DNA of 64,000 bases. Source: a virus. The stretch is from positions 128,001-192,000 of the IMG/VR virus record IMGVR_UViG_3300018080_000099. One strand, given 5' to 3'. Both the position numbers and the translations under genes were made by a program. Numbering within the stretch: position 1 is the stretch's first letter; every line of letters begins with the position of its first letter. The notes beneath the pieces are model-generated. The model saw nothing but the letters and a program-made list of their open reading frames with translations, did not search any database and was not told where the DNA came from. Positions 17,891 through 55,348 of this stretch are shown one piece after another.

Positions 17891-17966
17891 CGCTTATCTC
17901 CAAAAAAGAGGGAGAGCCTGTTGACAGACTCCCCCTTCAAATAAACCAATCTGATAACCAACTTTC

Positions 17967-34217: not shown

Positions 34218-35585
34218 ATGAGCGATATTATCGCGCTTGAAAAATTGAATGAAGTCGATTTTCGAGTCAAAGGACTCACACAAGGCTCTGCGCTTGAACT
34301 CAAGGAACACCTTACATGCGTCATAGATAACTGGTGGTTCCATCCGAGAGCAAAGGCTGGCTGGCGTGGAGAGATTTCATACTTCAACTGGAACGAACAA
34401 ACAGTACCCATTGGACTTTTTCCTCAAATGGTGAAGTTCTGCAAGAAGTTTGGGTATAAGCTAAAGATAGATTTTGACAAAGAAGAACTCTTTAATGACA
34501 TCAGCGATGAGGACTTCGAGGAATTCTACAAGGCAATCTTCAGGGATTCGACATTTGAACCCCGCGATTATCAGGACGAGTCCATCAAAAGGGCTCTTAG
34601 AAAGAAGCGCGGAATTATAGAATCTCCTACAGGCTCAGGAAAATCGTTAGTAATCTATACGCTGATACGATTTTTGTTAGGAGTTTGTGAAGGAAAGATA
34701 CTCTTGATTGTGCCGAACATTAGTCTTGTAAACCAGATGTTCTCAGACTTCAAGGAGTACGGCTGGGAGCAGTGTGAAGGGTATTGCAATTTGGTGTTCG
34801 GTGGCTCACAGAAAAGGTGGCAGTTACCCATAACTATCTCCACTTGGCAGTCAATTTACAAGAAGTCTATTGACTTTTTTGCACAATATCAGGCTGTTAT
34901 CGTGGACGAAACCCACGGAGCTAAGGCATCTTCAATACAGAAGTGCCTGAAGAAGTGTATCAATGCTGAGTACCGAATTGGTACAACAGGCACAATGCCG
35001 GATAGTAGGCAGGACCAGTTCACCATTTATGGGTATCTGGGGCCGAAAATCTTCAGCTTGACAAGTGGGGAATTGATTGACAAGGGCATCTTGTCGAAGA
35101 TAAAGATTGCGAACTTGTTGGTTCATTATCCGAAGGAAACGGTTTGGAATTACTGGCATGATGCTGAGGGGCATTTGGTTGGCAACTCTTATCAAGAGGA
35201 GCTTGACCAAATCTATGGAAATCATAGCAGAAATGGGGTTTTTAACTTCGTTTTGGACAATATTGATGCTGAGCAGAACGTGCTGATTCTCTGTCACAAA
35301 ATCAGTCATTTGAAGGACATTCGTGAGTACTTAGAAAAGAACTTTGGTGACAGAACGATATATGAGATTTACGGTCGTACTAAGGGTGATGAAAGAGAAA
35401 GAATAAGAAAAAAATTAGATACTGGTGAAAGAAAAATATTTTTAACTGATAATTCTTATATTATTATTGAAAATAAAGAAAAAGTTTTATTAACAAACGG
35501 ACAGTATAAAGAAGGATTAAAAATTACTTTAAAAGATGATATTAGTGATGTTTGGATAAAATCTAAAAAAGTTTATAAAAATTAA
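34218..35585 (+). CDS. SF2 DExH helicase, N-terminal part (UvsW-like); the reading frame ends inside an AT-rich insertion
   Basis: Motif I SPTGSGKSLV, motif II VIVDETH, motif III GTTGTMPD. Motifs V and VI are missing from this ORF. GC drops sharply after about 35440. Confidence 0.7.
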   Translation: MSDIIALEKLNEVDFRVKGLTQGSALELKEHLTCVIDNWWFHPRAKAGWRGEISYFNWNEQTVPIGLFPQMVKFCKKFGYKLKIDFDKEELFNDISDEDFEEFYKAIFRDSTFEPRDYQDESIKRALRKKRGIIESPTGSGKSLVIYTLIRFLLGVCEGKILLIVPNISLVNQMFSDFKEYGWEQCEGYCNLVFGGSQKRWQLPITISTWQSIYKKSIDFFAQYQAVIVDETHGAKASSIQKCLKKCINAEYRIGTTGTMPDSRQDQFTIYGYLGPKIFSLTSGELIDKGILSKIKIANLLVHYPKETVWNYWHDAEGHLVGNSYQEELDQIYGNHSRNGVFNFVLDNIDAEQNVLILCHKISHLKDIREYLEKNFGDRTIYEIYGRTKGDERERIRKKLDTGERKIFLTDNSYIIIENKEKVLLTNGQYKEGLKITLKDDISDVWIKSKKVYKN

Positions 35586-35595
35586 TGTTTATTGG

Positions 35596-35603
35596 TATAA
35601 ATA
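35596..35603 (+). promoter_or_regulatory. T4-type late promoter TATAAATA
   Basis: Exact TATAAATA 28 nt upstream of the ATG at 35631. Confidence 0.5.
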
Positions 35604-35630
35604 TAATTAGAATATTAAATACAAGGATTT

Positions 35631-36041
35631 ATGATGAATTTTAACAATTATTTAATGGAATCAATTAATAAGTTAAATAAAATTATTGAAGATTTTAGAA
35701 AAACTCTTGAAAATGATTATGATTGGCAAGAAGATAAAATGTGTATGAAAGGCACGTGCCAATCTGTTACTAAAGAACTTGTAGATTTGTTAAACAAAAA
35801 TGGATATAATGCTAAAAGAGTTAACGGAAGATATATGAACATATCAGATGATTTTGAGCCTGATATGAGTCAATGGAGTGATGAAGATATAGAAGAATGG
35901 ACTCCTGATATGGGAATGAATCATTGGTGGGTTGAGATTGGTGATAAAATTGTTGATGTGACTGCTGACCAATTTCATCCAAAAGAAGAAGATGATTATA
36001 GAATTATTATTACTAATAAAAGCAATAGGGATTATGAATGA
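35631..36041 (+). CDS. Hypothetical protein encoded inside the insertion
   Basis: 136-aa ORF, AT-rich codon usage. Confidence 0.4.
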   Translation: MMNFNNYLMESINKLNKIIEDFRKTLENDYDWQEDKMCMKGTCQSVTKELVDLLNKNGYNAKRVNGRYMNISDDFEPDMSQWSDEDIEEWTPDMGMNHWWVEIGDKIVDVTADQFHPKEEDDYRIIITNKSNRDYE

Positions 36042-36904
36042 TTTTTAGTAAATTTATTAAATTATTAGGAGAACCTACTAATAGAAAATTACTTCTTCAA
36101 TATATTTCATTTTGTAAAAACAGTTGTACTAATATTGGAAATAAAATAGAAAAACATCATATTGTTCCTAAAAGTGTTTGTAGAGAATGGATTAAAGAAA
36201 GTTTCAATATTATTCCTATGGAGTATGAGAATCATATTAAAGCTCATAGAATGTTAGTAGAAATTTATCCAATTAGAAAGTTTTATAGACCGTTGAATTA
36301 TATGCTTAATTATAATAAACCCGATGAATATTCAAAAATGAAAAGTAAAGAAGTAATTGATTGGTGGGTGTCTTTTAGAAAAAGCGATGAATATTTATTG
36401 TGGATTGAAAGAAGAAGAAAAAGTACTAATAATTTTGAAAATTTTATAAAAGGTGGTATTAAAAGTTCTATAAAAAGAAATAAAAGTAAAAAGTATCGGG
36501 AGAAAATTTCTGAAAAATGTAAGGATTTTTGGAATGTTAAAAATAGAAAAGAACATTCTAAAAAAATAAAAGAAGCAATGACAAATGAAGTTAAAAATAA
36601 AATGTCAATAATTTCAGAAGAAAGATGGGCTAATAAAGATTTTAGAAATAAAATGAAGAATAAAATGAAAGATGTTAATAGTCAAGAAGAAAAAAGGAAA
36701 ATTAGTTCAGAAAAAAATAAAAAGCATTGGAAGAGTTTGGAATATAGAAAGAAAATGAAAGAAGCAAGAGAAAATGGAAAGCAAAGAGATGTCGTTGGTC
36801 AATCAAATAAAATGAAAGAAAAATGGAAAAATCCTGAATTTAGAAAAATGATGTTAGAAAAAAGAAGGAAATCATATGAAGCCAAAAAAAATAGAGGAAA
36901 TTAA
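36038..36904 (+). CDS. HNH homing endonuclease
   Basis: EKHHIVPKSV...YENHIKAHR HNH motif, and a Lys-rich C-terminal DNA-binding-like tail with repeated KNKMK. Confidence 0.65.
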   Translation: MIFSKFIKLLGEPTNRKLLLQYISFCKNSCTNIGNKIEKHHIVPKSVCREWIKESFNIIPMEYENHIKAHRMLVEIYPIRKFYRPLNYMLNYNKPDEYSKMKSKEVIDWWVSFRKSDEYLLWIERRRKSTNNFENFIKGGIKSSIKRNKSKKYREKISEKCKDFWNVKNRKEHSKKIKEAMTNEVKNKMSIISEERWANKDFRNKMKNKMKDVNSQEEKRKISSEKNKKHWKSLEYRKKMKEARENGKQRDVVGQSNKMKEKWKNPEFRKMMLEKRRKSYEAKKNRGN

Positions 36905-36948
36905 AAGTCCCGGCCAAATTTTGGTCGGGACTTATTAGTTAAGCCACC

Positions 36949-37266
36949 ATGAGTACAGGAATAAATATAAAAAGACTACATCATGTTATATTTGCCTCAA
37001 GTTACCGTTCAAAGATTAAGGTGCTTCAGAGTATAGGTAGAGGCCTGAGAACCCACAAGACTAAGGACTTGTTAATTGTGTGGGATATTGTTGATGACTT
37101 GAGTTTCATACACAAGTGGGGCGATAAGGATGTGCTTCACAAAAACCATGTGTTCAAGCACTGGTATCAGAGATTGCAATACTATAAAAAACAAGGCTTT
37201 AATTTTGTCACAAGAAAGATAAATACAACTGAATATTATACTCAGGAGGATTCGGAAAATGGCTAA
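36949..37266 (+). CDS. SF2 helicase C-terminal segment (motifs V and VI); candidate exon 2
   Basis: STGINIKRLHHVIF (motif V) and QSIGRGLR (motif VI). No RBS before its ATG. The in-frame sequence extends back to 36943. Confidence 0.6.
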   Translation: MSTGINIKRLHHVIFASSYRSKIKVLQSIGRGLRTHKTKDLLIVWDIVDDLSFIHKWGDKDVLHKNHVFKHWYQRLQYYKKQGFNFVTRKINTTEYYTQEDSENG

Positions 37267-39973: not shown

Positions 39974-40396
39974 ATGCCTACAGTAACTACAAATCTTTAC
40001 AGACAGGAATCTGCCGGAGGAAATGTCAGCTTGAGTGGTGACAGTTTCAATGTCTCACTTATGGACAGTTATGTTTCTGCAACTGACACTTCCGCGTTGA
40101 AACATGTAAACTATTGGTCAGAAGTTTCTGCTAATGAGGTTAGTGGGGCAACATACTCTGCAATGGCGTTGTCAGCCGATACTCTTTCAGCCAACTCAAG
40201 TGATGTTGTGTATTGGGATGGTGTCAATCTAACGTGGACTGGTGTAACAGTTAGTCCGTATGGATTGGCAATCTATCGTCCATCGGACAACTTGGTAGTT
40301 GGTTTCGTGGAGTTTGACAATGCTCCAATTGTGGCAGTCAATGGGTCCATTACGATTAGCTGGAACCCTGCTGGCATTATGAACATATTTGGATAA
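39974..40396 (+). CDS. Hypothetical structural protein
   Basis: 140-aa ORF with AGGAG upstream. Confidence 0.5.
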   Translation: MPTVTTNLYRQESAGGNVSLSGDSFNVSLMDSYVSATDTSALKHVNYWSEVSANEVSGATYSAMALSADTLSANSSDVVYWDGVNLTWTGVTVSPYGLAIYRPSDNLVVGFVEFDNAPIVAVNGSITISWNPAGIMNIFG

Positions 40397-40406
40397 GGAG
40401 TAATCA

Positions 40407-40880
40407 ATGTCGAGAACGGGCGCTCAACTAAAAGCAAAGTGGGACGACGACCCTTTACTTCCTATGCGTTTGGCAAAAAAGAGTTATCCTATTAAGGATG
40501 ACTCTACTGTATATGAGCCAGTCTATGCTCAAATAAGAGTCTACTACAATAAGAACGGTAAAGCTGACATTCACCAAGAAAATTTTGAGGACACGACTAA
40601 AACATTATCAGCCGCAATTCCTCATTTTGATGACTTAAATTCAGTAAGAATCTTTTTGAGCTATGTTCCTAGTGTTAGCGCATTTTGGGATAATTTCAAT
40701 AAAGGTCCTCAGGACAGAGTTGAAATAAAAATGTTTGACATGTATGAAGATTATAGTTTATCAGAATTACAGGCTTTTGGGACTCTTAAAACTAAAAATA
40801 TTGGAGAGCTGACCCTTCAACAATTGCTTGATGCAATCGAGGGGAAGAAAGTTTCAGCAACCATAGAATCAATAAGGTAA
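40407..40880 (+). CDS. Hypothetical protein
   Basis: 157-aa ORF. Confidence 0.5.
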   Translation: MSRTGAQLKAKWDDDPLLPMRLAKKSYPIKDDSTVYEPVYAQIRVYYNKNGKADIHQENFEDTTKTLSAAIPHFDDLNSVRIFLSYVPSVSAFWDNFNKGPQDRVEIKMFDMYEDYSLSELQAFGTLKTKNIGELTLQQLLDAIEGKKVSATIESIR

Positions 40881-40884
40881 TTTA

Positions 40885-43800
40885 ATGGCAACCTTTACTG
40901 ATGCACAAAACGGTAACTGGGCAGATACCAATTCGTGGAATGAAGTAGGATTTCCGGTAGCCGGAGATGATGTAACCATTTCAGCCTACAACATTTCGTT
41001 ATCCGCAGACGAAGCTTGTGCTAGCCTTGACATTCAAGGTGGAAACTTCAACTTTGGTACCGGCGGATATACCATGACTGTATCCGGTGACTATACAGTC
41101 GCCAACAGTTCAGGTTTAATCACTCAAGGAGATGGAACACTTTTCTTATCGGGTGATGGAAACCTTTCTACGCCCCATCAAGATAACGGGCCTGATTTAA
41201 TAAAATGTGCTAATTCTGGTTATACCACAACTCTGGCATCCACTTCGGAAGTTAGAAGTATGCGTTGGTTGGGCGGAACATTTGGTGTTGGAAGTAGCCA
41301 GCATATAGCCGTTGGTCAACAAGCAGGCGATGAAGACCTTGTATTTTCGGCAGACCCCGGAACAACGGCTACTGTTGGTGGTGGTGGAGAAATATACTTC
41401 TCTACGCGTAACAGCGAAACTCGTAATATTGCCGGTTTTGATTTTAATGCGGCTATTGGTTTAAGCTTTTTTGGTGCTGGTGATTTTAACATTTCGGGAA
41501 CCATTTTTAGAACTACTGGTGGTATTTGGAATTGGATGAATCCGGGTTCGTGGAATTTGTTAGGTGGTGTTAATGTCGATTGTGAAGGTCTACAGAACAA
41601 TGACTGTACTTTAAATACTGGAACTGGCACGCACATCTTTAGAAGTGTTACTACATTCACATCCAACGCAACTTTCAATTTTAGCGCATCTAACTGGATA
41701 CTTACAGGCGAGTGGGACCCTGGTTCAACCACCACAGTCAATACCCAACAAGGTACAATAACTTTCAGTGGAGGTTCAGACCAAGATGTTACCTCTCACG
41801 GTGAAACTTTACCAGACATAATTGTTGATAAGTCCGGTGGAACAGTTGCACAGCAAGACGATTTTAACTGTGAGGACTTTTCAATCTCCGGTGGAACATG
41901 GGACACTAACGGTGGTTCCAACTATGATTTGGATGTTGATGGAGACTTTTTACTAGCTGGTGGAACCATTGATGTACAAAGCTCTGATGTGCTTCTTGCC
42001 CAAGGATTCCTTAAAACAGGCGGAACGCTTACAGAAGATTCAAGTAGATGGATATTTAATGGAAATACAGGAACACATACTATCGACTCGTCTTCCGGCA
42101 TTCTTCCTACATTTATCGTTAGTGGAACAGGTGGAACATGGAACTGGGGTGGTACTAATGGATTTGATGCCGTTACAGTAGAAGCTGGAACATTCTCGCT
42201 TAACAACAACAGTAAACAGGTATCATGGACTTCATTGACTGTTAATGGTGGTTTCTTCGATGCTACCAATGGTACGATAGAACCTTATGGTGGAATCACG
42301 ATTGCTGATGCCGCAAACATTGCTGACTTTGGAACATCCAAGATTGTATTCCCTCTTGGTCAGTCTGTATCTAACCCTAACTCAACAAACCCGTTTTACA
42401 ACATTGTGGTTGATGATGGTACAGTAACCATGAACAGTGTTCTTCGCTGTGATGGTGAGATTCAGATTGATGGTGGTACTCTTGATGTTCAATCTTACGA
42501 TGTATACTGTGACGACCTTGACATCAATGGTGGCACATTGGATTTGTCTGATGCCGCCGGCCCTACAGTTTATATTACCGGAGATATAGATGCTACTGGT
42601 AGTGGAACGATTTCGGAAGGAAGTTCAACATTTGATTTTTATGGCGACACCGACCAAAACATAACAAGTAATGGAATAGCTTTTAATGATGTTGTCGTTA
42701 CAAATGTAGACGGTACTATACGTTTTGTAGACGCGTCAACAATATCAGGAACATTTGCACCGGGTAATGGCTCATCTACTGTTACTGTTGGTTTTGAAGA
42801 ATCGCAGAATCACTATTGGGGAGCATATGATGATACGAATGCTTCGGGTGATAGTACGGTTGTTTTAGTAAGTAATTCTCCGACAACGCAGTGGAACCTG
42901 ACAATAGGTTCAAACCAGTCAGCATTCCATACAGATGTAACTGACAGTAATTTGACAGGTAACACTATTGATGCTACCGCGGCAGGAAACGTCGATGGTG
43001 GAAACAACAGCGTAAATTGGATTTTCGCAGACGAGTCGAGTTCAAGCGAATCAAGCTCAAGTGAATCGAGCCAGAGTTCGCCGTCCTCAGAGTCGAGTAG
43101 TAGTGAATCGAGTCAGAGTTCGCCATCTTCGGAGTCAAGTTCATCTGAATCAAGCCCTTCCTCAGAGTCGAGTCCTTCGTCTGAATCTAGTTCAAGTGAA
43201 TCTAGTCCTTCATCGGAGTCGAGTTCATCTGAATCGAGTCAGAGTTCGCCTTCAAGCGAATCGAGTAGCAGCGAATCAAGTCCTTCGTCAGAGTCTAGTT
43301 CCAGTGAGTCTAGTCAGTCAAGTCCTTCGTCAGAATCAAGCCAGAGTTCGCCTTCCAGTGAGTCGAGTTCTTCACAGTCTAGCCCATCTTCGGAATCCAG
43401 TTCAAGCGAATCTTCTCCGTCAAGTCCGTCGTCGGAATCAAGCTCAAGTCAGTCTAGTCCTTCGTCGGAATCGAGTAGCGAATCGAGTCAGAGTTCAGAA
43501 TCGTCCGTAAGCGAGTCGAGTCAGTCGTCTGAATCTAGCGAATCCAGTTCAAGCGAATCTTCTCCGTCAAGTCCGTCGTCGGAATCCAGCAGTTCTGAAT
43601 CGAGTCTATCTTCGGAATCGAGTGAGTCGAGTTCCAGCGAATCTTCTCCTTCGTCTGAAAGTAGTTCCTCGCAGTCATCGCAGTCATCTGAATCTAGTGA
43701 GTCAAGTTCCAGCGAATCAAGTCCGTCGTCTGAGTCAAGTCAGTCGTCACCAAGCTCAGAATCAAGCAGTAGTGAATCGAGTCAGAGTTCGCCGTCGTCT

Positions 43801-45516
43801 GAATCGAGTAGTAGCGAATCAAGTCAGTCGTCACCAAGCTCAGAATCAAGCAGTAGTGAGTCCAGCTCAAGTGAATCGAGTCAGAGTTCACCATCATCGG
43901 AATCAAGCAGTAGTGAATCGAGTCAGAGTTCGCCTTCATCAGAATCTTCAGTAAGTGAATCAAGTCCGTCATCGGAATCAAGCTCAAGTGAGTCGAGCCA
44001 GTCGTCTGAGTCTAGCGAATCAAGTTCTTCGGAGTCTAGTCCGTCGTCTGAATCATCAGTCAGCGAATCAAGCCAGTCAAGTGAATCGTCCGTGAGCGAG
44101 TCGAGCCAGTCGTCTGAGTCGAGTGAATCAAGTTCCAGCGAATCTTCTCCGTCAAGTCCGTCGTCTGAGTCCAGCAGTTCCGAATCAAGCCCATCGTCAG
44201 AGTCAAGCGAATCAAGTTCTTCTCAGTCGAGTCCTTCGTCAGAGTCAAGCGAATCAAGTTCTTCTCAGTCGAGTCCTTCGTCAGAGTCAAGCGAATCAAG
44301 TTCTTCGGAGTCGAGTCCGTCGTCTGAATCTTCGAGTTCCGAATCGAGTCAGTCATCGCAGTCTAGTGAGTCAAGCTCAAGCCAGAGTTCACAGTCATCG
44401 GAATCGTCTAGTTCTGAGTCGAGTCCTTCGTCTGAGTCGTCTGAATCAAGCTCAAGCCAGTCATCACCATCGTCTGAATCTTCGAGTTCTGAGTCGAGTC
44501 CTTCTTCCGAATCTTCAAGTTCGGAATCAAGTCCTTCTTCCCAGTCGAGCCAGTCCGATGAATCAAGCTCAAGCATTTCAAGCTCAAGTGAGTCGAGTCC
44601 ATCTTCGGAGTCAAGTTCTTCTGAATCGAGTCCTTCGTCTGAGTCGAGTGAGTCCTCGCCGTCGAGTGAGTCAAGCTCAAGTGAGTCGAGTCCGTCGTCG
44701 GAATCAAGCGAGTCGAGTTCTAGCGAATCGAGCCCTTCATCTCAGTCGAGCGAATCTAGTTCCTCACAGTCGAGTCCTTCGTCACAGTCAAGCGAATCTA
44801 GTTCCTCACAGTCAAGTGAAAGCTCGCCATCTTCGGAATCTAGCAGCAGTGAATCTAGCTCATCTGAGTCGAGTGTAAGCTCACCGTCATCTGAATCAAG
44901 CGAATCGAGTTCTTCACAGTCGAGTGAAAGTTCTCCTTCGTCACAGTCGAGTGAGTCTAGTTCTTCTCAGTCAAGTGAATCTTCTCCTTCAAGTGAGTCG
45001 AGTTCTTCTCAGTCAAGTCAGAGTTCACCGTCATCTGAATCAAGCTCAAGTGAAAGCTCTCCTTCATCGGAGTCAAGCTCAAGCCAATCATCGGAATCAA
45101 GTCAAAGCTCTCCTTCGTCAGAGTCGAGCAGTAGTGAATCGAGTCCTTCGTCTGAATCAAGCGTATCTTCTGAGTCAAGTGAATCGAGTTCATCTAGTAG
45201 TTCGGAATCAAGTCAAAGCTCTCCTTCATCTGAGAGTAGCTCTTCGGAATCGAGCCAGAGTTCACCATCGTCCGAATCTAGCTCATCTGAATCAAGTCAA
45301 AGCTCGCCTTCATCTGAGAGTAGTTCTTCTCAGTCAAGTCAGTCGAGTCCAAGCTCAGAGTCGGAATCGAGCCAGTCATCGCCGTCAAGCGAATCAAGCG
45401 AATCAAGCAGTTCTGAATCAAGTCCTTCGTCTGAATCCAGTGAATCTAGTGAGTCAAGCTCAAGTTCGGCTACAACTCCACCAATGTTTTATTACTACAG
45501 ACGAAGAAGGCTATAA
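40885..45516 (+). CDS. Giant virion-associated protein: N-terminal Gly/Thr/Asn-rich beta-helix/adhesin-like domain (about 710 aa) plus a C-terminal tail of about 820 aa of Ser-Glu-Ser-Pro-Gln low-complexity repeats
   Basis: 1543-aa continuous ORF. Repeated GGT/TGG beta-solenoid-like units in the N-terminal half. The C-terminal half is almost exclusively SESSSSESSPSSESSQSSPS. Ends YYYRRRRL. Confidence 0.7.
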   Translation: MATFTDAQNGNWADTNSWNEVGFPVAGDDVTISAYNISLSADEACASLDIQGGNFNFGTGGYTMTVSGDYTVANSSGLITQGDGTLFLSGDGNLSTPHQDNGPDLIKCANSGYTTTLASTSEVRSMRWLGGTFGVGSSQHIAVGQQAGDEDLVFSADPGTTATVGGGGEIYFSTRNSETRNIAGFDFNAAIGLSFFGAGDFNISGTIFRTTGGIWNWMNPGSWNLLGGVNVDCEGLQNNDCTLNTGTGTHIFRSVTTFTSNATFNFSASNWILTGEWDPGSTTTVNTQQGTITFSGGSDQDVTSHGETLPDIIVDKSGGTVAQQDDFNCEDFSISGGTWDTNGGSNYDLDVDGDFLLAGGTIDVQSSDVLLAQGFLKTGGTLTEDSSRWIFNGNTGTHTIDSSSGILPTFIVSGTGGTWNWGGTNGFDAVTVEAGTFSLNNNSKQVSWTSLTVNGGFFDATNGTIEPYGGITIADAANIADFGTSKIVFPLGQSVSNPNSTNPFYNIVVDDGTVTMNSVLRCDGEIQIDGGTLDVQSYDVYCDDLDINGGTLDLSDAAGPTVYITGDIDATGSGTISEGSSTFDFYGDTDQNITSNGIAFNDVVVTNVDGTIRFVDASTISGTFAPGNGSSTVTVGFEESQNHYWGAYDDTNASGDSTVVLVSNSPTTQWNLTIGSNQSAFHTDVTDSNLTGNTIDATAAGNVDGGNNSVNWIFADESSSSESSSSESSQSSPSSESSSSESSQSSPSSESSSSESSPSSESSPSSESSSSESSPSSESSSSESSQSSPSSESSSSESSPSSESSSSESSQSSPSSESSQSSPSSESSSSQSSPSSESSSSESSPSSPSSESSSSQSSPSSESSSESSQSSESSVSESSQSSESSESSSSESSPSSPSSESSSSESSLSSESSESSSSESSPSSESSSSQSSQSSESSESSSSESSPSSESSQSSPSSESSSSESSQSSPSSESSSSESSQSSPSSESSSSESSSSESSQSSPSSESSSSESSQSSPSSESSVSESSPSSESSSSESSQSSESSESSSSESSPSSESSVSESSQSSESSVSESSQSSESSESSSSESSPSSPSSESSSSESSPSSESSESSSSQSSPSSESSESSSSQSSPSSESSESSSSESSPSSESSSSESSQSSQSSESSSSQSSQSSESSSSESSPSSESSESSSSQSSPSSESSSSESSPSSESSSSESSPSSQSSQSDESSSSISSSSESSPSSESSSSESSPSSESSESSPSSESSSSESSPSSESSESSSSESSPSSQSSESSSSQSSPSSQSSESSSSQSSESSPSSESSSSESSSSESSVSSPSSESSESSSSQSSESSPSSQSSESSSSQSSESSPSSESSSSQSSQSSPSSESSSSESSPSSESSSSQSSESSQSSPSSESSSSESSPSSESSVSSESSESSSSSSSESSQSSPSSESSSSESSQSSPSSESSSSESSQSSPSSESSSSQSSQSSPSSESESSQSSPSSESSESSSSESSPSSESSESSESSSSSATTPPMFYYYRRRRL
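43024..45480 (+). repeat. Degenerate tandem repeat of about 42 nt encoding the Ser-rich tail
   Basis: Repeated tcgagttc(a/t)agcgaatc(a/g)agc... units throughout. Confidence 0.85.
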
Positions 45517-45520
45517 ATAT
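45513..45520 (+). promoter_or_regulatory. T4-type late promoter TATAAATA (overlaps the TAA stop of the giant ORF)
   Basis: Exact motif 33 nt upstream of the ATG at 45554. Confidence 0.45.
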
Positions 45521-45553
45521 AAGTGTAAACCAATTGTAACATGGGAGATATGA

Positions 45554-46105
45554 ATGAATTACTTTAGACAATCAACTTCAGCGACTTTCCGATTCGGGCC
45601 GTTTGTTAGCGAATCCGATGGATATACGCCGGTAACGAACTTAAGTATTTCGGCATCGGACGTTAGATTGTCCAAGGATGGTGGTTCCTTCGCAGCTAAA
45701 AGCGATTCCACTTCGGGCGTACATGATGAGTTTGGTTACTACAACATTACGATGAACGCCACGGATACTGCATCGGCAGGACCACTGAGAGCGGCAGTTG
45801 ATATGGCTGGTGCGCTTCCTGTATGGGAAGATTTTACAGTTCTTCCTGCAAATGTATACGATTCATTGGTAGCCGGAACGGACACCCTTGAGGCTGTAAT
45901 GGTTAGCGCTACAAGTGGTGGTACTTCGGCAATATTCGGAACGACTATTGATACCAAGACGTTTGAGGAAATCTTGGAAATCCTGCTGGCAATGGCCACG
46001 GGTAAGGTCAACAGAACCAACGAAGTATTCAAGTACTATAAGCAGGATAATACGACCGAGCTATATACGCTGACATCGACGACCACTGCACGAACGAGGT
46101 CATAA
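45554..46105 (+). CDS. Hypothetical structural protein
   Basis: 183-aa ORF. Confidence 0.5.
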   Translation: MNYFRQSTSATFRFGPFVSESDGYTPVTNLSISASDVRLSKDGGSFAAKSDSTSGVHDEFGYYNITMNATDTASAGPLRAAVDMAGALPVWEDFTVLPANVYDSLVAGTDTLEAVMVSATSGGTSAIFGTTIDTKTFEEILEILLAMATGKVNRTNEVFKYYKQDNTTELYTLTSTTTARTRS

Positions 46106-46951
46106 ATGGCTAACTGGGTAGGGGTATATAACGCCGGTTGGTTCGGAGAAGGCACGACCAATTCCGACCCATTATCGGTATTCCATCACGGATGGTTCGT
46201 GAGTATGGAGATTAGCGGGGTTTCACCCTCTGCTAGCGTCTATGATAGCGTCTATCTGAACTACCAGAATGTCCCGAACCAGTATATCACCAAATGTATC
46301 AATAGCAGCTATGGCGGTTCCGTAGGAAACTATAACAACGAAAGAGAACTGTTCGATGTTCTTGTCACTGAAGCTTACAACAAGCACGGTGTCTGCATGG
46401 ATTACTACGTCACATCGTATGATAAGGCGTATGATAAGATTTGGGGCGAGGACAACGATAGAAGATACGTCCGCAGATTCGAAGTCATGGCATTCTTCAC
46501 ACTTCCGAGAGAGGAAAGACTCTGGACTAAGTTCGGAATTGAAGGCCTTGACTCATTTAGTATGTACGTTTCCAAGAGGCACTTCTGGACGGCTTCACAA
46601 TACGATGCCGCTCAGACAACTCCAAATGCTTATAGTCCGTATATTCCTAAAGCAGGAGACTACATTTACTCTAAATACAACAAATATGTCTATGAGATTG
46701 TCGAAGTAAAAGACGAAATCATGATGAACTTGCTGTCCAAACAGCACGTTTGGGAATTCATGGTGAAGCCATTCAAGGACGAACATATCGAAACCACGAG
46801 TCTTACATCGGCATCACCAATGTCAGCTATCACGAATAAGGATAGCGACAAGTTTGATATTACCAGTGTTGTGGACGCTAAGAAGCCAGATGTTAACTAT
46901 CAACCGCCTCCAACTGAGGAAGGTCCAGACGACCCATTTGGCAATTGGTAA
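46106..46951 (+). CDS. Hypothetical structural protein
   Basis: 281-aa ORF with ATG/TAA overlap. Confidence 0.5.
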   Translation: MANWVGVYNAGWFGEGTTNSDPLSVFHHGWFVSMEISGVSPSASVYDSVYLNYQNVPNQYITKCINSSYGGSVGNYNNERELFDVLVTEAYNKHGVCMDYYVTSYDKAYDKIWGEDNDRRYVRRFEVMAFFTLPREERLWTKFGIEGLDSFSMYVSKRHFWTASQYDAAQTTPNAYSPYIPKAGDYIYSKYNKYVYEIVEVKDEIMMNLLSKQHVWEFMVKPFKDEHIETTSLTSASPMSAITNKDSDKFDITSVVDAKKPDVNYQPPPTEEGPDDPFGNW

Positions 46952-46965
46952 AATAAGGAGGAAAC

Positions 46966-47265
46966 ATGGCAGAAGGTTTTAAGGACTTCAGAAGCAATAA
47001 AGAAAAGCCAAGAGAGGACTTGACAAAGAACGCTGATTGTCAGGAAGCTATCAGGGAACATATTATGGAAAAGATGGGAGTCAGTAATAACGCTCTTGTT
47101 TCCTTGGTTGTTCACGCTACAAGAAACACACCTGTCAATGAAAATGATGTTAAGGAACTTGAGTTTTTCGGATATATTGCCGAAGGAACAATAACCACAA
47201 AGGGAAAAGCTTTTCTTGACGAAGAAGAAACTATCGACAGATTGAAGAAAATGATTGGGTATTAA
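46966..47265 (+). CDS. Hypothetical protein
   Basis: 99-aa ORF with AGGAGG upstream. Confidence 0.45.
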   Translation: MAEGFKDFRSNKEKPREDLTKNADCQEAIREHIMEKMGVSNNALVSLVVHATRNTPVNENDVKELEFFGYIAEGTITTKGKAFLDEEETIDRLKKMIGY

Positions 47266-48601: not shown

Positions 48602-51313
48602 ATGGCTGTAGGAGATGTATGTAAATATCGGGTTTCGACACATGCGTTACCAACTTCAGAAGATGTTTGGGAAGGTGTCGCCTTTGGTACAACTGTAGGA
48701 ACACCAGCCACCATCTATTCGATGAGCGCCAACAACATCGACATTCAGATAAACGAAACTGGATGGTATCTCGCTACATATCGTGTTAGAACTGAAGGTG
48801 AAGCTAATAACCGAAACATTCTAAGATGTAAAGCTGTATATGATAGAACTGATATTGAAGGTGCTATCGGAACTCGTTATTATCGAAACGATGCCAATGA
48901 TGAAGTTTGTCCAACCGCTCACTGCTTATTTGAAGTAACCGCAACAGGTAACTTCTTTAGAGTTGAAGCATTGGTTCGTGGAGAAGATTCGACACCAACA
49001 GATGATGCTACAACTGATAGTGAAGTTCAGTTGGTTCGACTTACAGATGAAACAGCCGCGTCCTATGCAAACTATACTGATGGTTCAGATACAGGAAGTT
49101 ATGGTACGACTACTTGGGATGGATTATCGTGGGATACTGTTGAAGATGAAACCGACACATCCGTCATCGAATTAAGCGCAGACGGAGAGACGGTTGAATT
49201 AAAAGAGATTGCAAGGTATCTTGTTTCGTACAATGTGACCTTCCAACATACAAACCGTTCCGCTAGAATTGGTCGAGCAACTCTTAATGGTGTCGAACTT
49301 CCAAACTCAAATAGTCAGCTATATCTTAGAGATACTGATGTTGACTTTAACTCCTTGAATGCTCTTTTCATTGTTGATGTTAGTGCTGCTAATTCTACAC
49401 TGAAAATAGAGGCACAGGTCGGTGATAACTCAAGTGGAGGGTCAAGAGTAGTAAATGCAAGCAGACTTGGTGTCATGCGATTGCCTGATACGGCTGAGGT
49501 TGTTATTGGTAGGGATGATACTGGTGGGCAGGAAATGGGTGGGGCTGGTAATGTTACCCTAATCAACTCATGTAGAACTACGCCCACAATTGACGCCGCA
49601 TCTTTTACAAGGAATGATAATACTACAATCGAAGTCGAGAAAGATGGTAACTATCTATTCATGCTTAATGGTAGATTGAATAGAGGGACTTCAACAGGTA
49701 CAAGATGTCAGATTCTTTCTCGATGGACATTGAATAATGTAGACCAACAGGTTCTTTCTACGTGCTACATTCGAGGTCTTCAGTCATCTCTTTACACATA
49801 CGATGGTGGATATGGTGCTTCATTTATAGCCAACCTTTCAGCTAATGACCAAATTGAGTTTGAGTCATTTGAGCAGGGTGATAACGGATTAGCACAGACA
49901 GTTGGTGGTAGTATTGGTATGGCGGCTTTGAACCTTGATACTTTGTTAGGTGAGGAATCAAGCTCCGAGTCAAGCTCACAATCGCAAGATATTTCATCAG
50001 AATCTTCTGAGTCTAGTTCATCTCAGTCAAGTCCTTCGTCAGAATCCAGCAGTAGTGAATCGAGCCAATCTTCTCCGTCAAGTCCTTCGTCTGAGAGTTC
50101 ATCTTCTCAGTCAAGTCCTTCTTCGGAATCGAGTTCCTCAGAGTCCAGTGTTTCGTCACCGAGTTCTGAGTCGTCAAGCTCACCGTCAAGTCCTTCGTCT
50201 GAATCGTCATCGTCTGAATCGAGTCAGTCTAGCCCATCTTCGGAGTCTAGTTCAAGCGAGAGTTCGGAGTCGAGTCCTTCGTCTGAGTCCAGCAGTTCGG
50301 AATCAAGCCCATCATCCGAAAGCAGTTCTTCTCAGTCAAGCCCATCTTCTGAGTCAAGTTCTAGCCAGTCCAGTCCTTCGTCCGAGTCGTCCGAATCGAG
50401 TCCTTCATCCGAAAGTAGTTCTTCTCAGTCAAGTCCTTCTTCCGAATCAAGCCCTTCTTCGGAATCGAGTTCTAGCCAATCTTCGCCGTCATCGGAATCG
50501 AGTTCTAGCCAGTCTAGTCCTTCATCGGAGAGCAGTTCTTCTCAGTCAAGTCCTTCGTCTGAATCCTCGGAATCGTCAAGCTCACAATCAAGCCCATCGT
50601 CCGAGTCGAGCAGTAGCGAAAGTTCTCCTTCGTCTGAGTCGTCTGAATCAAGCTCAAGTCAGTCTAGTCCTTCGTCCGAATCAAGTTCATCGGAATCGAG
50701 CCTGTCAAGTCCTTCATCTGAGAGTAGTTCTTCTCAGTCAAGTCCTTCGTCAGAATCTAGTTCCAGTGAATCGAGTGTTTCTTCTCCTTCTTCGGAATCG
50801 AGTAGTAGTGAAAGCTCTCCTTCGTCCGAATCTAGCGAATCAAGCTCAAGTGAATCGAGCCCATCTTCGGTATCGTCCGAATCAAGCTCAAGCGAATCTA
50901 GTCCTTCATCGGAATCTTCGAGTTCGGAATCAAGCTTGTCATCACCGTCAAGCCAGAGTGAAGAAAGTGAATCGTCTGAATCAAGTTCTAGCCAGTCATC
51001 TCCTTCGTCTGAATCAAGCTCATCCGAATCAAGCCAGTCGTCGCTTTCATCTGAATCAAGTTCCAGCGAAAGTTCGGAATCAAGCCCGTCGTCACCATCG
51101 TCAGAATCAAGTAGTAGCGAATCAAGTCCTTCGTCTGAATCCAGTTCAAGTGAATCAAGCCCATCTTCGGCATCGAGTGCTTCGTCAGAATCAAGTTCAT
51201 CATCGGTATCAAGCGCTTCTTCGGAATCTAGCTCATCCGAATCTAGTTCATCCGAGGGGCCACAACCCATAGTTGGTAGGAGACTAAATAACCGTATAAT
51301 GATGTTGTCGTAA
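48602..51313 (+). CDS. Second large virion-associated protein: N-terminal folded domain of about 445 aa plus a C-terminal Ser-Glu-Ser repeat tail of about 440 aa
   Basis: 903-aa ORF. The tail composition is identical in style to that of 40885-45516. Confidence 0.7.
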   Translation: MAVGDVCKYRVSTHALPTSEDVWEGVAFGTTVGTPATIYSMSANNIDIQINETGWYLATYRVRTEGEANNRNILRCKAVYDRTDIEGAIGTRYYRNDANDEVCPTAHCLFEVTATGNFFRVEALVRGEDSTPTDDATTDSEVQLVRLTDETAASYANYTDGSDTGSYGTTTWDGLSWDTVEDETDTSVIELSADGETVELKEIARYLVSYNVTFQHTNRSARIGRATLNGVELPNSNSQLYLRDTDVDFNSLNALFIVDVSAANSTLKIEAQVGDNSSGGSRVVNASRLGVMRLPDTAEVVIGRDDTGGQEMGGAGNVTLINSCRTTPTIDAASFTRNDNTTIEVEKDGNYLFMLNGRLNRGTSTGTRCQILSRWTLNNVDQQVLSTCYIRGLQSSLYTYDGGYGASFIANLSANDQIEFESFEQGDNGLAQTVGGSIGMAALNLDTLLGEESSSESSSQSQDISSESSESSSSQSSPSSESSSSESSQSSPSSPSSESSSSQSSPSSESSSSESSVSSPSSESSSSPSSPSSESSSSESSQSSPSSESSSSESSESSPSSESSSSESSPSSESSSSQSSPSSESSSSQSSPSSESSESSPSSESSSSQSSPSSESSPSSESSSSQSSPSSESSSSQSSPSSESSSSQSSPSSESSESSSSQSSPSSESSSSESSPSSESSESSSSQSSPSSESSSSESSLSSPSSESSSSQSSPSSESSSSESSVSSPSSESSSSESSPSSESSESSSSESSPSSVSSESSSSESSPSSESSSSESSLSSPSSQSEESESSESSSSQSSPSSESSSSESSQSSLSSESSSSESSESSPSSPSSESSSSESSPSSESSSSESSPSSASSASSESSSSSVSSASSESSSSESSSSEGPQPIVGRRLNNRIMMLS
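49946..51250 (+). repeat. Ser-rich-tail coding repeat (paralogous to 43024-45480)
   Basis: Same degenerate 42-nt unit. Confidence 0.85.
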
Positions 51314-51330: not shown

Positions 51331-53025
51331 ATGAGCGTTGAATTGACTTTTAGTACATGTGACAGAATACCAATCCCATTCGAGAACCACTACAAAAACT
51401 CTTCATGTTTCTTGGTGCTTTCCGGCCCGTCATTGAACAATCACGACCTGACAAAGATTCAGCAACCGGGTATTACCACATTTGGCGTAAACAATTCTCC
51501 GAAAGCATTTAGGCCCAACATGTGGATTTGTGTGGACCACCCTTCAAGGTTCATGATTAGCATATGGAAAGACCCGAACATTACTAAGTTCGTGCCGTTC
51601 TTTAAAGCCAAATCTAACCTCTTTGATAACTTCAACTGGCAGAACACCGACAGAAGGGTTATGGATTCTCCGAATGTTGTGTACTACCATCGGAACGAAC
51701 AGTTCAATCCCGACACATTCTTGACTGAAAAGACTGTCAACTGGGGAAACCACAAGAAGTATGGTGGTGGCCGAAGTGTTATGATGGCGGCACTGAAGAT
51801 TTGCTATCTGCTGGGATTCAAAAACGTGTTCCTGCTTGGATGTGACTTCAAGATGGAGAAGGATAAGCAAAACTACTCATGGGAACAAAACCGAAGTGTC
51901 GGTTCCGTGAGAGGAAACAACAGCACATATAATAAAATGATTGATAGATACACGAAGCTTCAACCGATTTTTGAGGAGAAGGACTTCCATGTGTACAACT
52001 GCAATCCCGACTCTCAGCTTCAAGTCTTTCCGTACATGTCCTATGACGATGCCGTGGCAACTGCATTGAAAGAGTTCCCTGATGTGAAAACAGAAAGAGC
52101 TGAAGGAATGTATGACAGATTTGATGCTGAAGAAAAGAGGAAAAAGGATAAAAAGAAAATGAAGCAAATTGAGAAAATCAAGAAGTCCGAGAAACCGATT
52201 GAAGGCTCTTGTGGAGTCATCTATTACAATGTGGGTAAGGGAGCCTTGGTAAGACTTGCGGTATCTCTTGCAACTTGTGTGAATCACTACCCTAAAGACA
52301 AGATAACAATTCTGGCAGACTATGAAGGCTACAATGAATGTAAGAAGATTGCAAAACACTTCGGAGTCAACTTGAAAATCATTGAACTGGAAAAGCTTGA
52401 CAAGAAGGAAGTCCTTCTCAATAAGTGTTTGGCACACACATACACACCTTATGACAATACGATATTCATAGATTCTGATACCATTGTACTGGGAAGCTTT
52501 GATGAACTACATGATGAAGCTGAAAAGCATGAATTCGTAACTACACAGTTCTCAGACTGGCTAACCACAAGGGGAGTCATTAAGAAAAGAATCAAGGAGT
52601 GGAAGCCTATCTTCCCAGATATGATTGGTGAAGCTCTCAAGGAGAGGCCATCAGTCAATGTGGGTGTCTTTGCATTTCGTAGGGATAGTGAATTTATGAA
52701 GGTGTGGTTTGATTATGCTAAGCATGGAACTCACATGTTCATTCCTGATGAACAATGCTGTCATTTGCTTATACCAAAGTTCAAGAACAGTATCGTATCA
52801 CACGACTACAACTCAAGTTGTAAGTATGACGAAATAACCGATTCCACCAAGATTCTTCACTTCCACGGAAGGAAGCACTGTCGAGTGGACGAAGATGGAA
52901 CATACAAATTCAATAGCGACAAATGGTATGCTGAGTTTGACAAGATTAGAGAGTTGGACTTTGTTAAGGACAATATCCAACACGATAGACAACTGAGAAA
53001 GCATTTACCGATGAGGGACAAATGA
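51331..53025 (+). CDS. Two-domain putative glycosyltransferase: N-terminal Maf/CstII-like (GxGPSL...GCDF) domain and C-terminal GT8/GT-A-like DxD domain
   Basis: LVLSGPSL and LLGCDFKM motifs in the N-terminal half. YNVGKGALVRLAVSLATCVNHY followed by IDSDTIV (DxD) in the C-terminal half. 564 aa. Confidence 0.5.
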   Translation: MSVELTFSTCDRIPIPFENHYKNSSCFLVLSGPSLNNHDLTKIQQPGITTFGVNNSPKAFRPNMWICVDHPSRFMISIWKDPNITKFVPFFKAKSNLFDNFNWQNTDRRVMDSPNVVYYHRNEQFNPDTFLTEKTVNWGNHKKYGGGRSVMMAALKICYLLGFKNVFLLGCDFKMEKDKQNYSWEQNRSVGSVRGNNSTYNKMIDRYTKLQPIFEEKDFHVYNCNPDSQLQVFPYMSYDDAVATALKEFPDVKTERAEGMYDRFDAEEKRKKDKKKMKQIEKIKKSEKPIEGSCGVIYYNVGKGALVRLAVSLATCVNHYPKDKITILADYEGYNECKKIAKHFGVNLKIIELEKLDKKEVLLNKCLAHTYTPYDNTIFIDSDTIVLGSFDELHDEAEKHEFVTTQFSDWLTTRGVIKKRIKEWKPIFPDMIGEALKERPSVNVGVFAFRRDSEFMKVWFDYAKHGTHMFIPDEQCCHLLIPKFKNSIVSHDYNSSCKYDEITDSTKILHFHGRKHCRVDEDGTYKFNSDKWYAEFDKIRELDFVKDNIQHDRQLRKHLPMRDK

Positions 53026-54410: not shown

Positions 54411-55348
54411 TGGGAGCTTTTTATAAGACGTTTAATGAAAAGATACGAGAGGTTTGGAAGCTAGCAACCCAACTGGACAAACCAGTACGAGAGAACCTTA
54501 CATGGACTGTTGGTATTATCAATGGTAGATGTGACTTTGAGGATTTACAGGCACATGGAGCCGCCCTCATGGCAAGCATCATCATTAAGGAGAAAGTAGT
54601 TCCCAAAATCATTTGTGTCTGGGACACCCCGACTGATACTAACACCAGTAAGTGGGACCTTGAGGAAAGACAACGAATCTATCCTTTGTATCTTTTAAGA
54701 CTGTTTGACGAATTTGATGAAAGCTTTTTGGAGAAACCAAAGATATTCAGCTGCAATCGGCTGAGTAACCAATATGTTTCGTTACACAGGGCCGGTTGGT
54801 CAGTCAATCCAATTCCATCAGGATTGACGCTTGGTTATAGGGCTAAGTATCTTGGTTTGAATTATGTCAGGACGACGCACGCTATCATGTCAGATATTGA
54901 TACTATATGCACGGATGAGTGCTGTGATTATGTTCAGGAAAACATTGATAGAAACCCAGAGACCTTTTGTTTAACGAATTACTACGATAATGAGAATGTG
55001 AGTGTAGGGCTTGTAGCATTCAACATGCGAAAGTACAGAGAAGTCTATTTACCACTGTGGCATGAGATGTATTGGAAGTTACCGAAAGCCGATGCTAAGT
55101 TCATTCAAGCTATTCGGAAAGAATATCTTGAATGTCAGGATGAGCTTGATATACAATTGATGGACAAGAACGTTGTCAACACTGAAAAATACTACCACAA
55201 TATTCCAAGGAAGAATCACTGGGTAGATGATAAGTCAAAACACTACCATGCTTGGAAAGGTGAGATGGAGCAAAACACCGAAGAGTTCAATAGCTTCTAT
55301 AACGACATACTGGACAATCTAATAAAGGATGCAAAAACAAATGATTGA
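54410..55348 (+). CDS. Hypothetical protein within the glycosylation cluster
   Basis: 312-aa ORF with ATG/TAA overlap on both sides. No motif recognised. Confidence 0.45.
   Translation: MGAFYKTFNEKIREVWKLATQLDKPVRENLTWTVGIINGRCDFEDLQAHGAALMASIIIKEKVVPKIICVWDTPTDTNTSKWDLEERQRIYPLYLLRLFDEFDESFLEKPKIFSCNRLSNQYVSLHRAGWSVNPIPSGLTLGYRAKYLGLNYVRTTHAIMSDIDTICTDECCDYVQENIDRNPETFCLTNYYDNENVSVGLVAFNMRKYREVYLPLWHEMYWKLPKADAKFIQAIRKEYLECQDELDIQLMDKNVVNTEKYYHNIPRKNHWVDDKSKHYHAWKGEMEQNTEEFNSFYNDILDNLIKDAKTND

Follow-up and report, generated by a model that had tools for sequence, protein, structure and literature searches.

Phage fibres are normally rigid trimeric shafts, and the fibritin (wac) whiskers of T4 are trimeric coiled coils that attach by their N-terminus and end in a C-terminal foldon. 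The BclA-type hairs of the Bacillus exosporium and the glycosylated collagen-like fibrils of giant viruses are likewise built from trimeric collagen helices, with three chains for each head. In the Clf/Sdr proteins of staphylococci, a stalk of SD repeats separates the binding domain from a C-terminal anchor, and its glycosylation by SdgA and SdgB guards it against proteolysis. The serine-rich repeat proteins (SRRPs) of Gram-positive bacteria, such as Fap1, GspB, PsrP and SraP, are O-glycosylated in the cytoplasm by dedicated, genetically linked glycosyltransferases (PMC6973325, PMC7948813), while polyserine linkers serve as flexible spacers between the folded modules of secreted carbohydrate-active enzymes in Saccharophagus, Teredinibacter and Cellvibrio (PMC2386152, PMC2699552). 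According to one account, phage-encoded glycosyltransferases are reported to modify the virion proteins of mycobacteriophages extensively (PMC12582341). Literature searches, including searches on serine-rich, polyserine and low-complexity phage proteins, turned up no phage protein described as having a Ser-rich stalk. The protein examined here, P1, is encoded at 40885..45516 of a 64,000-nucleotide (nt) stretch of viral DNA, hereafter the window (positions 128,001 to 192,000 of IMG/VR record IMGVR_UViG_3300018080_000099), and is best classed as combining a phage fibre with a glycoprotein-type Ser-rich stalk. The reading towards which we lean, with moderate confidence, is that P1 is a virion appendage made of head, stalk and anchor, whose stalk is probably O-glycosylated and which docks in the neck region of the particle.

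As is proposed for P1, SRRPs carry a ligand-binding region on a very long Ser-rich repeat and end in a C-terminal anchor. P1 differs from them, however, in that it lacks both the accessory-Sec signal peptide and the LPXTG motif and that neither secA2/secY2/asp nor GtfA/B genes are linked to it, in a repeat made of E-S(2-4), P-SS and Q-SS rather than of the SRRP repeat dipeptides, in belonging to a particle assembled in the cytoplasm, and in its linked enzymes, which are of other families (DUF115-like, GT8-like and GT2). Indeed, no signal peptide or transmembrane segment is found in P1 (N-terminus MATFTDAQNGNWADTNSW; highest 19-residue hydropathy 1.12, at residue 190), in P2, the second tract protein of the window, or in the enzymes of the glycosyltransferase island that follows P2. 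The Pfam, PHROG and NCBIfam scans of this region, which covered the submitted open reading frames (ORFs) in 34.2-63.1 kb and left out short ones such as 46966..47265, recognised neither Sec components (secA2/secY2/asp) nor GtfA/GtfB. With the Clf/Sdr proteins P1 shares a stalk of acidic residues and serine, but theirs consists of SD dipeptides over up to ~300 amino acids (aa) and is held by a covalent cell-wall anchor, whereas the tracts described here are Glu-Ser(n) with Pro and Gln, span 434-1500 aa and have a proposed non-covalent peptide anchor. As to the mycobacteriophages, these phages and their hosts are unrelated to the phage of P1, and Freeman et al. are said to have found in 2023 that the modifications sit close to the C-termini of capsid and tail-tube subunits, with no giant Ser-rich stalks. 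P1 lacks what defines each of the families likened to it, be it the signal peptide, LPXTG, accessory Sec, the collagen helix or the length.

An initial annotation of the window had listed P1 as a 1543-aa protein, and this ORF was recovered with its ATG start, preceded at 8 nt by an AAGG ribosome-binding site and lying 4 nt past the stop codon of the 40407..40880 gene. The C-terminal tract, put at about 820 aa of pure Ser, Glu, Pro and Gln, measures 812 aa, of which 99% are these four residues (S 71.1%, E 15.6%, P 6.7%, Q 5.5%; nine others). It does run in one uninterrupted frame, but not as one uniform 20-mer: it resolves into 235 X-S(n) tokens (the commonest being ESS, 71; PSS, 54; ESSSS, 52; and QSS, 44), combined into units of 11 aa (ESSSS-ESS-PSS) and 14 aa (ESSSS-ESS-QSS-PSS), which account for the periods of 33, 42 and 75 nt that Tandem Repeats Finder detects in the DNA. 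A degenerate DNA pattern for PSSESSSSESS[PQ]SS has 29 matches in the window and none in 100 shuffles, well outside what chance would give. The coding frame contains 0 stops across the tract, against 4-128 in the other five frames; that frame +2 has just 4 is due to the composition of the tract, and the overlapping ORFs within it (e.g. 43061..43510 and 44123..44878) were discarded as by-products of the repeat.

The underlying DNA repeats are degenerate (57-96% matches in Tandem Repeats Finder) and all six Ser codons are in use. Identical peptide units have a mean DNA identity of only 69-72%, as compared with the 55-58% expected from random synonymous codons, and some positions of the unit retain one codon family. 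Such identity therefore points to old tandem duplications maintained at the protein level, not to recent slippage, and, as far as the sequence tells, the repeats appear to reflect selection. Near-perfect DNA is found only over 131 nt (44194..44324), where three 42-nt copies are 96% identical and where all exact repeats of >=60 nt in tract 1 are located; no other array exceeds 88% identity, and exact repeats extend to no more than 26 nt inside tract 2, that of P2, and 34 nt between the two tracts. The description of the repeats as a hotspot of recombination and assembly error was thus overstated.

The N-terminal part of P1 had been called a beta-solenoid or adhesin-like domain. Its AlphaFold2 model (aa 1-718) is all-beta, with short strands throughout, and of good quality (predicted local distance difference test, pLDDT, 88.3; predicted template modelling score, pTM, 0.76), so that a beta-solenoid is confidently modelled. 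The adhesin likeness fared less well: the nearest PDB structures found by Foldseek are autotransporter/adhesin beta-helices (VacA, TibA, EspC and Hap), but at E ~1 (best 0.79), with no match at E<=0.001 and the K2-2 tailspike at E 8.5, and therefore no specific structural family can be named for the head. No significant structural match links the head to the trimeric tailspikes (pectate-lyase-type beta-helix depolymerases), and the Pfam scan of P1 returned no beta-helix or lyase family; unlike autotransporter passengers, P1 has neither a C-terminal beta-barrel translocator nor a signal peptide. Among the predicted structures of BFVD, significant matches (E down to 5e-9) are to uncharacterised proteins of uncultured tailed phages.

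A phmmer search with the head retrieved 63 relatives, the best being P0003 (734 aa; 43% identity over aa 1-715, E 1e-129), and three of them (P0026, P0031 and P0039) are found in giant bacterial surface proteins. Back-translated patterns of the head found no match in IMG/VR. P1 begins with the N-terminal motif of the family, MA.F.D..NGNW...N.W....P..GDDV, and its head closes with the family C-terminal module, DV.DSNL.G..ID......D.GNNS.NW.F. The Ser tract is absent from all 33 relatives whose sequences were read; those whose alignment covers the final residues of the P1 head terminate 10-25 aa beyond the NNSxNWxF motif, with a short C-terminal peptide directly after it. This peptide is of several types: type-A-like in P0003 (...YNYRRRRV), P0010 (...DTYRRRRI) and P0007 (...YYHSRRRK), RGV repeats in P0009, P0013 and P0014, GQL or GYN repeats in P0005, P0016 and P0024, and SPSIEVGT in P0006 and P0012. 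The YYYRRRRL end of P1, at first taken for an odd tail, is accordingly the conserved C-terminal peptide of its family. Since the relatives end just past NNSxNWxF and several of them share this end peptide, the 812-aa tract is an insertion between body and peptide, which displaces the type A peptide present in P1, and is therefore to be regarded as a stalk and not as a tail.

Examination of the genes around P1 brings out a candidate docking partner for this peptide. P1 is part of a four-gene module with the order phrog_644 gene, small gene, beta-helix gene and N-domain gene (39974, 40407, P1 and 45554 in the window), which recurs in contigs L036 and L121 and, as far as the contigs extend, in L037 and L034; the coordinates are 39974..46105 in the window, 7315..11808 in L036, 2065..8119 in L121 and 9734..14265 in L034. 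The L036 counterpart of the first gene (136 aa; phrog_644 at E 1e-28) likewise lies two genes 5' of the beta-helix gene. The 157-aa protein of the window is weakly similar at its N-terminus to the 84-85-aa 'MSKTGAELKA..' proteins whose genes stand ahead of the beta-helix gene in L036, L037 and L121 (blastp E 0.007 with that of L036), and in all four the protein begins M-S-K/R-T-G; L034 has in this position an 84-aa gene that shows little evident similarity. The N-domain of the 183-aa protein (45554 gene) is 49-50% identical to the N-termini encoded by the genes directly 3' of P0010 (L036) and P0003 (L034), and this domain family has no PDB or PHROG match. Furthermore, the type of end peptide goes with the type of N-domain: the Y.YRRRR peptide is paired with the 45554 type in three of three loci (49-51% identity), the GQL/GYN peptides with a second type in two of two (57% identity) and the RGV peptide with a third type in the single locus available, while the downstream proteins swap their own C-terminal domains independently of this pairing. 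We put forward the hypothesis, kept at that level because the loci are few and related, that the C-terminal peptide and the partner N-domain form a docking pair; GPQPIVGRRLNNRIMMLS, beside ATTPPMFYYYRRRRL, is a further candidate docking peptide.

The module is common to otherwise unrelated phage types and occupies differing sites in their structural regions. It lies between the capsid gene and the head-tail joining genes in L036, L037, L118 and L121, which have a lambda-type head and a contractile tail, after the baseplate genes in L034, an E217-like myovirus, and next to the neck gene in the window; overall, beta-helix homologues are found within head or baseplate modules of at least seven other phage contigs. 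For the phage of the window we infer that the neck region is the favoured attachment site, as P1 lies two genes 5' of the neck gene and as in contig L013 a comparable tract is fused in frame to the neck protein, the neck part being 67% identical to aa 50-281 of the window neck protein. L013 is syntenic with the window across the replication and early plus-strand genes. A similar neck fusion is seen at the end of L038, a phage contig of the L013 type with 35% GC that is binned, probably wrongly, in a Methanosarcinales metagenome-assembled genome (MAG). With its gene just 5' of the neck genes, P1 would resemble fibritin as an accessory neck fibre, but it has no coiled coil, its modelled part is all-beta and probably monomeric, and its proposed attachment is C-terminal; no fibritin family was found in the Pfam or PHROG scans.

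P2 offers a second instance of the same design on a different head. In its head, Pfam BclA_C is detected at E 2.5e-7 (31 bits, under the cut-off of 38), and a model of moderate quality (pLDDT 63.5, pTM 0.75) displays three tandem jelly-rolls (48602..49951); engineered single-chain TNF/C1q trimers (4zch at E 6e-16, 5kca and 5hzf) come first among its PDB matches, which also include BclA/ExsF structures, and this modelling suggests a natural single-chain pseudo-trimer. In the P2 homologue P0064 (60% identity) the head is directly followed by the short end, with no tract, and in P0065 by just a 28-aa polySer linker ahead of another domain, and P2 thus has the insertion architecture of P1. Both heads being single-chain units, they fit a single-chain stalk rather than a trimeric shaft. 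P2 recalls the BclA-type hairs by its TNF/C1q-like head, repetitive stalk and short anchor, and a collagen-like gene lies between P1 and P2; the difference is that here one disordered chain would form the stalk and would bear as its head either a monomeric solenoid or a single-chain pseudo-trimer. Polyserine linkers are matched by the 28-aa linker of P0065, but the P1 tract is at least ten times longer than this linker, the only one compared, and has regular acidic and proline punctuation and a linked glycosyltransferase island. Searches for the type-B peptide pattern that ends P2 found in IMG/VR only the two contigs known already. The Cys-rich protein encoded directly 5' of P2 has homologues (49-52% identity) directly 5' of P2 homologues in L004 (6962..7318) and L005 (3834..4256), and this gene of ~110 aa precedes the P2-family gene with or without a tract; its product could be a chaperone or a partner. 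Residues 190-329 of the collagen-like protein are 65% identical to the protein encoded directly 5' of the tract gene of L006.

The observation made on P1 is real and is more general than first described. Among related phage contigs, gathered by searching with the downstream glycosyltransferase, tracts of 0.3-1.5 thousand residues are borne by other heads (Table 1), and their end peptides are conserved while tract unit and length vary. Tracts of the same genome resemble each other (7-mer similarity 0.54 for P1 and P2, and 0.49 for L009 2..892 and 8085..9221) more than orthologous tracts do across genomes (0.21-0.25), which suggests concerted evolution or a shared constraint, for example the specificity of the modifying enzymes of each genome. 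Direct searches were uninformative: with the tract as protein query none of 8000 candidates was scored, probably owing to the composition correction of HMMER, and with the last 148 aa of P1 none of 231 pattern matches was confirmed by tblastn, probably owing to low-complexity filtering. An exact-sequence look-up of P1 matched no record.

The initial annotation also proposed the tract as a substrate of O-glycosylation, for which the support is circumstantial and comes from an adjacent glycosyltransferase island and its recurrence. The island lies directly after P2 and ~6 kb downstream of P1, and by this proximity the stalk may be a sugar-coated, mucin-like tether. PF01973, which we take to be the domain of the Maf flagellin glycosyltransferases, is detected in the N-domain of the lead enzyme at E 1e-6 (28.9 bits against a cut-off of 34.6) and in 10 of the 10 homologues scanned at E<=0.01 (best 4e-7). 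Maf enzymes transfer pseudaminic acid to flagellin (PMC7874193). The lead enzyme also hits the PHROG 'alpha-2,3-sialyltransferase' family at E 1e-9, and in the PDB the N-domain profile has a single match, to a CMP-Neu5Ac sialyltransferase at E 0.036 across the LLGcDF motif; neither the full-length nor the N-domain profile retrieved a solved Maf structure from PDB. In the C-terminal half, PF01501 (GT8) scores 16.8 bits against a cut-off of 24.3, GT8/glycogenin matches have E 0.005-0.02, and glycogenin matches at E 0.02-0.03 extend across a region with the invariant D381-S382-D383. The fold assignment suggested by these profiles is thus a weak one. The island enzymes are basic and their proposed substrates acidic, and each of the six loci with usable flank (the window, L002, L006, L009, L012 and L013) has a tract gene no more than ~10 kb from the island. 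No island-type enzymes occur in the available sequence around the head homologues without tract (L001, L004 and L005).

A comparable linkage is seen in bacteria, in a context wholly unlike that of the phage, which provides independent support. In 80 bacterial loci with homologues of the N-domain (38-48% identity), mostly from Phycisphaerales, a Ser-rich gene lies 3' of the enzyme gene in 67, on the same strand and starting 42-1043 nt downstream (median 288 nt), while only three comparable Ser-rich tracts are found elsewhere in 1.32 Mb. In one example, L048 (9929..12258), the Ser-rich gene encodes a ~400-aa S/G/T-rich protein with a weak Hint domain, and a methyltransferase gene lies 5' of the enzyme gene. 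The pair looks like an uncharacterised enzyme-substrate cassette. The Phycisphaerales/Planctomycetota MAGs (loci L039-L117) have several copies of N-domain homologues per genome. An assignment of the phage host to the PVC group through these homologues was rejected, their GC content being 54-69% against ~42% in the phage.

Table 1. Features of the P1 region of the window and tract proteins of related phage contigs (strand and coordinates as available)
Feature	Coordinates	Strand	Description
phrog_644-family gene, 140 aa	39974..40396	+	First gene of the module; phrog_644 at E 2.4e-9
Small module gene, 157 aa	40407..40880	+	Start MSRTGAQLKAKW; directly 5' of P1
P1 (protein under study)	40885..45516	+	ATG start; 1543 aa, 155 kDa, pI 4.05
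P1 head, predicted beta-solenoid	40885..43032	+	aa 1-716; final motif DGGNNSVNWIF
P1 Ser/Glu/Pro/Gln tract, putative stalk	43033..45468	+	aa 717-1528, 812 aa; net charge ~-128
P1 C-terminal peptide	45469..45513	+	ATTPPMFYYYRRRRL; type A, Y-x-Y-RRRR-L/V/I; stop codon next
TATAAATA motif	45512..45519	+	Overlaps P1 stop; 35 nt 5' of the 45554 gene
183-aa protein, candidate dock/adaptor	45554..46105	+	N-terminal ~120 aa conserved beside type-A beta-helix proteins
gp14-like neck protein	46106..46951	+	Pfam T4_neck-protein 27.3 bits (cut-off 25); PHROG 'head closure Hc2' E 7e-13
Collagen-like fibre protein, 329 aa	47255..48244	+	Pfam Collagen E 7e-6, 26.1 bits (cut-off 27.2); many PHROG tail-fibre families
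Cys-rich protein, 110 aa	48269..48601	+	End ...PCPCGCHELQCECYVADCECCSGECT; directly 5' of P2
P2, 903 aa	48602..51313	+	Head aa 1-450, 434-aa S/E/P/Q tract, end EGPQPIVGRRLNNRIMMLS (type B peptide)
P2 tract	49952..51253	+	434 aa; repeat vocabulary as in P1
Lead enzyme, 564 aa	51331..53025	+	pI 8.7; putative N-terminal DUF115/MptE-like (Maf/GT42-like) and C-terminal GT8-like domains
Radical SAM protein with unknown N-domain	53022..54410	+	Pfam Radical_SAM 31.2 bits (cut-off 29.5); conserved in L002, L006, L009, L013
Island gene, 312 aa	54410..55348	+	No family match; 63-65% identical homologues in L006, L009
GT2 glycosyltransferase	55329..56081	+	Pfam Glycos_transf_2 36.4 bits (cut-off 23.3)
Two methyltransferases	56078..57297	+	FkbM family; Methyltransf_24
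WbuC-family cupin (sugar-pathway-type)	57282..57653	+	Pfam Cupin_2; NCBIfam cupin_WbuC E 2.6e-6
L002 tract protein			Beta-helix protein end, extra domain, ~1466-aa (E-S4-5)n tract, ...VVVTLKNRIMMLS (...KNRIMMLS)
L006 tract protein			Laminin_G_3 head (E 2e-12), ~1450-aa (E-S5-7)n tract, ...SLNNRVMMLN
L009 P2 orthologue			End ...EGPQPSIGKKLNNRVMVLS
L012 P2 orthologue			End ...EGPQPITGRGLNNRIMMLS
L009 second tract gene	8085..9221		~100-aa N-domain, then tract; no end peptide
L013 fusion protein	17043..20255		Single ORF: 345-aa N-domain (three ~115-aa repeats), ~500-aa Ser/Gln/Glu tract, gp14-like neck protein

The wider gene content places P1, as the initial annotation had supposed, among structural proteins of a phage, namely the virion genes of an uncultivated phage that is T4-like but distant. 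On the minus strand, as far as ~33 kb, lies a T4-type replication module (gp43-like polymerase, gp41-like helicase, primase, UvsX, gp46/47-like proteins, clamp loader and NrdA), and the plus strand encodes UvsW, the P1 region, the gp14-like neck protein, the collagen-like fibre protein and the portal (Portal_T4 at E 7e-98), for which the best identity with a GenBank phage is just ~30%; a megablast of 36.0-48.5 kb against GenBank phages returned no match. The T4 late-promoter consensus TATAAATA occurs 9 times in the window where ~2 copies are expected, always on the gene-bearing strand of its half (minus to ~33 kb, plus beyond), with other sites at, for example, 33877, 35596, 57660 and 63131. 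A further glycosyltransferase gene on the minus strand (28797..29990; PHROG 7162 at E 2e-20) adjoins the gp46/47-like genes, presumably the position that the DNA alpha-glucosyltransferase gene has in T4, and its product may act on DNA rather than on protein. Past UvsW, GC falls to 25-31% against ~42% in an island (35000..37000) that is probably of mobile origin, inserted here, and includes a gene for an HNH/homing endonuclease (36038..36904). The window also has a single tRNA-Met (CAT) gene, at 319..389 on the minus strand.

These elements can be combined into a mechanism. The P1 head would be a monomeric beta-solenoid, probably ligand-binding, and the stalk an acidic, intrinsically disordered single chain inserted between the head and the YYYRRRRL peptide, which would dock P1 to the particle, most likely via the N-domain of the 183-aa protein and in the neck region. 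The soluble island enzymes would most likely attach O-linked glycans to the stalk in the cytoplasm, making it stiffer and shielding it in the manner of mucins, the serine-rich-repeat adhesins of bacteria and the SD-repeat proteins of Staphylococcus. Such a stalk could measure ~290 nm if fully extended and ~200 nm at mucin-like spacing, while a bare random coil of the same tract would have a radius of gyration of only ~11 nm; with such a length, the head could explore much of the space surrounding the particle.

Several points weigh against this glycosylated neck appendage. Both the glycans and the incorporation of P1 into virions are things that we infer, the family matches of the lead enzyme are weak (PF01973 and GT8 under their cut-offs, PDB at E 0.036), and the island could instead serve the modification of the host surface or of DNA. 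No pathway of nucleotide-sugar biosynthesis, pse/leg/neu genes included, was recognised in the window. The 67 bacterial loci belong largely to one expanded Phycisphaerales family and therefore stand for few independent events, and the co-variation of peptide and partner comes from six loci that are not phylogenetically independent. In addition, the module follows the capsid gene in four contigs (L036, L037, L118 and L121) and the baseplate genes in L034, so that synteny does not fix the attachment site, and the L009 tract protein encoded at 8085..9221 has no C-terminal peptide.

Among the other explanations, the one that retains the appendage and dispenses with its sugars deserves the most attention, although we judge it rather unlikely. 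The tract would then be an unmodified, charged and flexible tether, in effect an enlarged polyserine linker, and the glycosyltransferases would act on host envelope glycans, another virion protein or DNA. P0065 has such a linker, 28 aa between two domains, with no obvious need for glycans, and in P1 a Glu at every 3-7 residues and a charge of ~-128 would already favour an expanded chain; the weak family assignments of the island enzymes and the presence of another glycosyltransferase in the replication module are also in keeping with it. However, this leaves aside the closeness of tract gene and island in six of six close-relative loci with usable flank and of enzyme and Ser-rich gene in 67 of 80 bacterial ones, and a bare disordered chain of 800-1500 aa would be highly exposed to proteases. 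That the tract is the target of some other modification is very improbable: phosphorylation, of the kind known from the DSS repeats in dentin phosphophoryn, or the radical SAM chemistry of the island, with a role such as metal or mineral binding. Its S-x-E/ESS periodicity is like that of acidic phospho-acceptor repeats in general and the island has a conserved radical SAM enzyme (53022..54410), but the family scans of the neighbourhood recognised no kinase, and what they did recognise were glycosyltransferases, methyltransferases and a sugar-type cupin.

It is improbable, to a lesser degree, that P1 is no virion protein at all and acts inside the cell or after release during infection, for example as a decoy or sink for a host enzyme, a matrix-binding factor at lysis or a cell-surface conversion factor. 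No TATAAATA motif lies directly 5' of its gene, and its head resembles bacterial surface adhesins and has relatives in giant bacterial surface proteins (P0026, P0031 and P0039). Yet P1 has no signal peptide or transmembrane segment, its gene stands between virion genes in a tightly spaced same-strand run, its homologues belong to the head or baseplate modules of at least seven other phage contigs, and the L013 tract is fused to a neck protein. Least credible of all, finally, is an assembly artefact or a decaying pseudogene. Low-complexity repeats do trouble assemblers, and in the near-perfect stretch at 44194..44324 the copy number may be off by one or two 14-aa units, but the frame remains open for 2.4 kb and then reaches a conserved peptide, the other arrays are at most 88% identical with exact repeats no longer than 26 nt (tract 2) and 34 nt (between tracts), the DNA divergence of identical peptide units is that of old, selected repeats, and equivalent tracts of 0.3-1.5 thousand residues with conserved ends occur in at least five independent contigs. 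With DNA repeats so degenerate, an artefact is therefore unlikely beyond a length shift of a unit or two.

Beyond the glycosylated neck appendage proposed for P1 itself, a broader proposition can be made, which we hold as tentative and as somewhat doubtful. A clade of distant T4-like phages would bear mucin-like glycoprotein tentacles, in which single-chain Ser/Glu stalks of 0.4-1.5 thousand residues, hundreds of nm long, are O-glycosylated by a DUF115/GT8 pathway of the phage, carry interchangeable lectin-like heads (beta-helix, ConA-like or single-chain TNF-like) and are plugged into the particle by a C-terminal peptide code or by fusion to the neck protein, the same pair of enzyme and Ser-rich substrate operating in Planctomycetota. 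If this were true, these tentacles would constitute a new class of virion appendage together with a new protein-glycosylation system.

For P1, if the proposed appendage is confirmed, a single disordered chain several times the length of the particle, and probably sugar-coated, would be a different physical way to find a host. The O-glycosylation of virion proteins, known so far from a few mycobacteriophages, would extend to T4-like phages and at a far larger scale, and the pairing of peptide and N-domain would amount to a portable docking code for the display of cargo on phage particles. Furthermore, the enzyme is linked with Ser-rich genes in Planctomycetota as well, which suggests that bacteria have a so far uncharacterised system of protein glycosylation.

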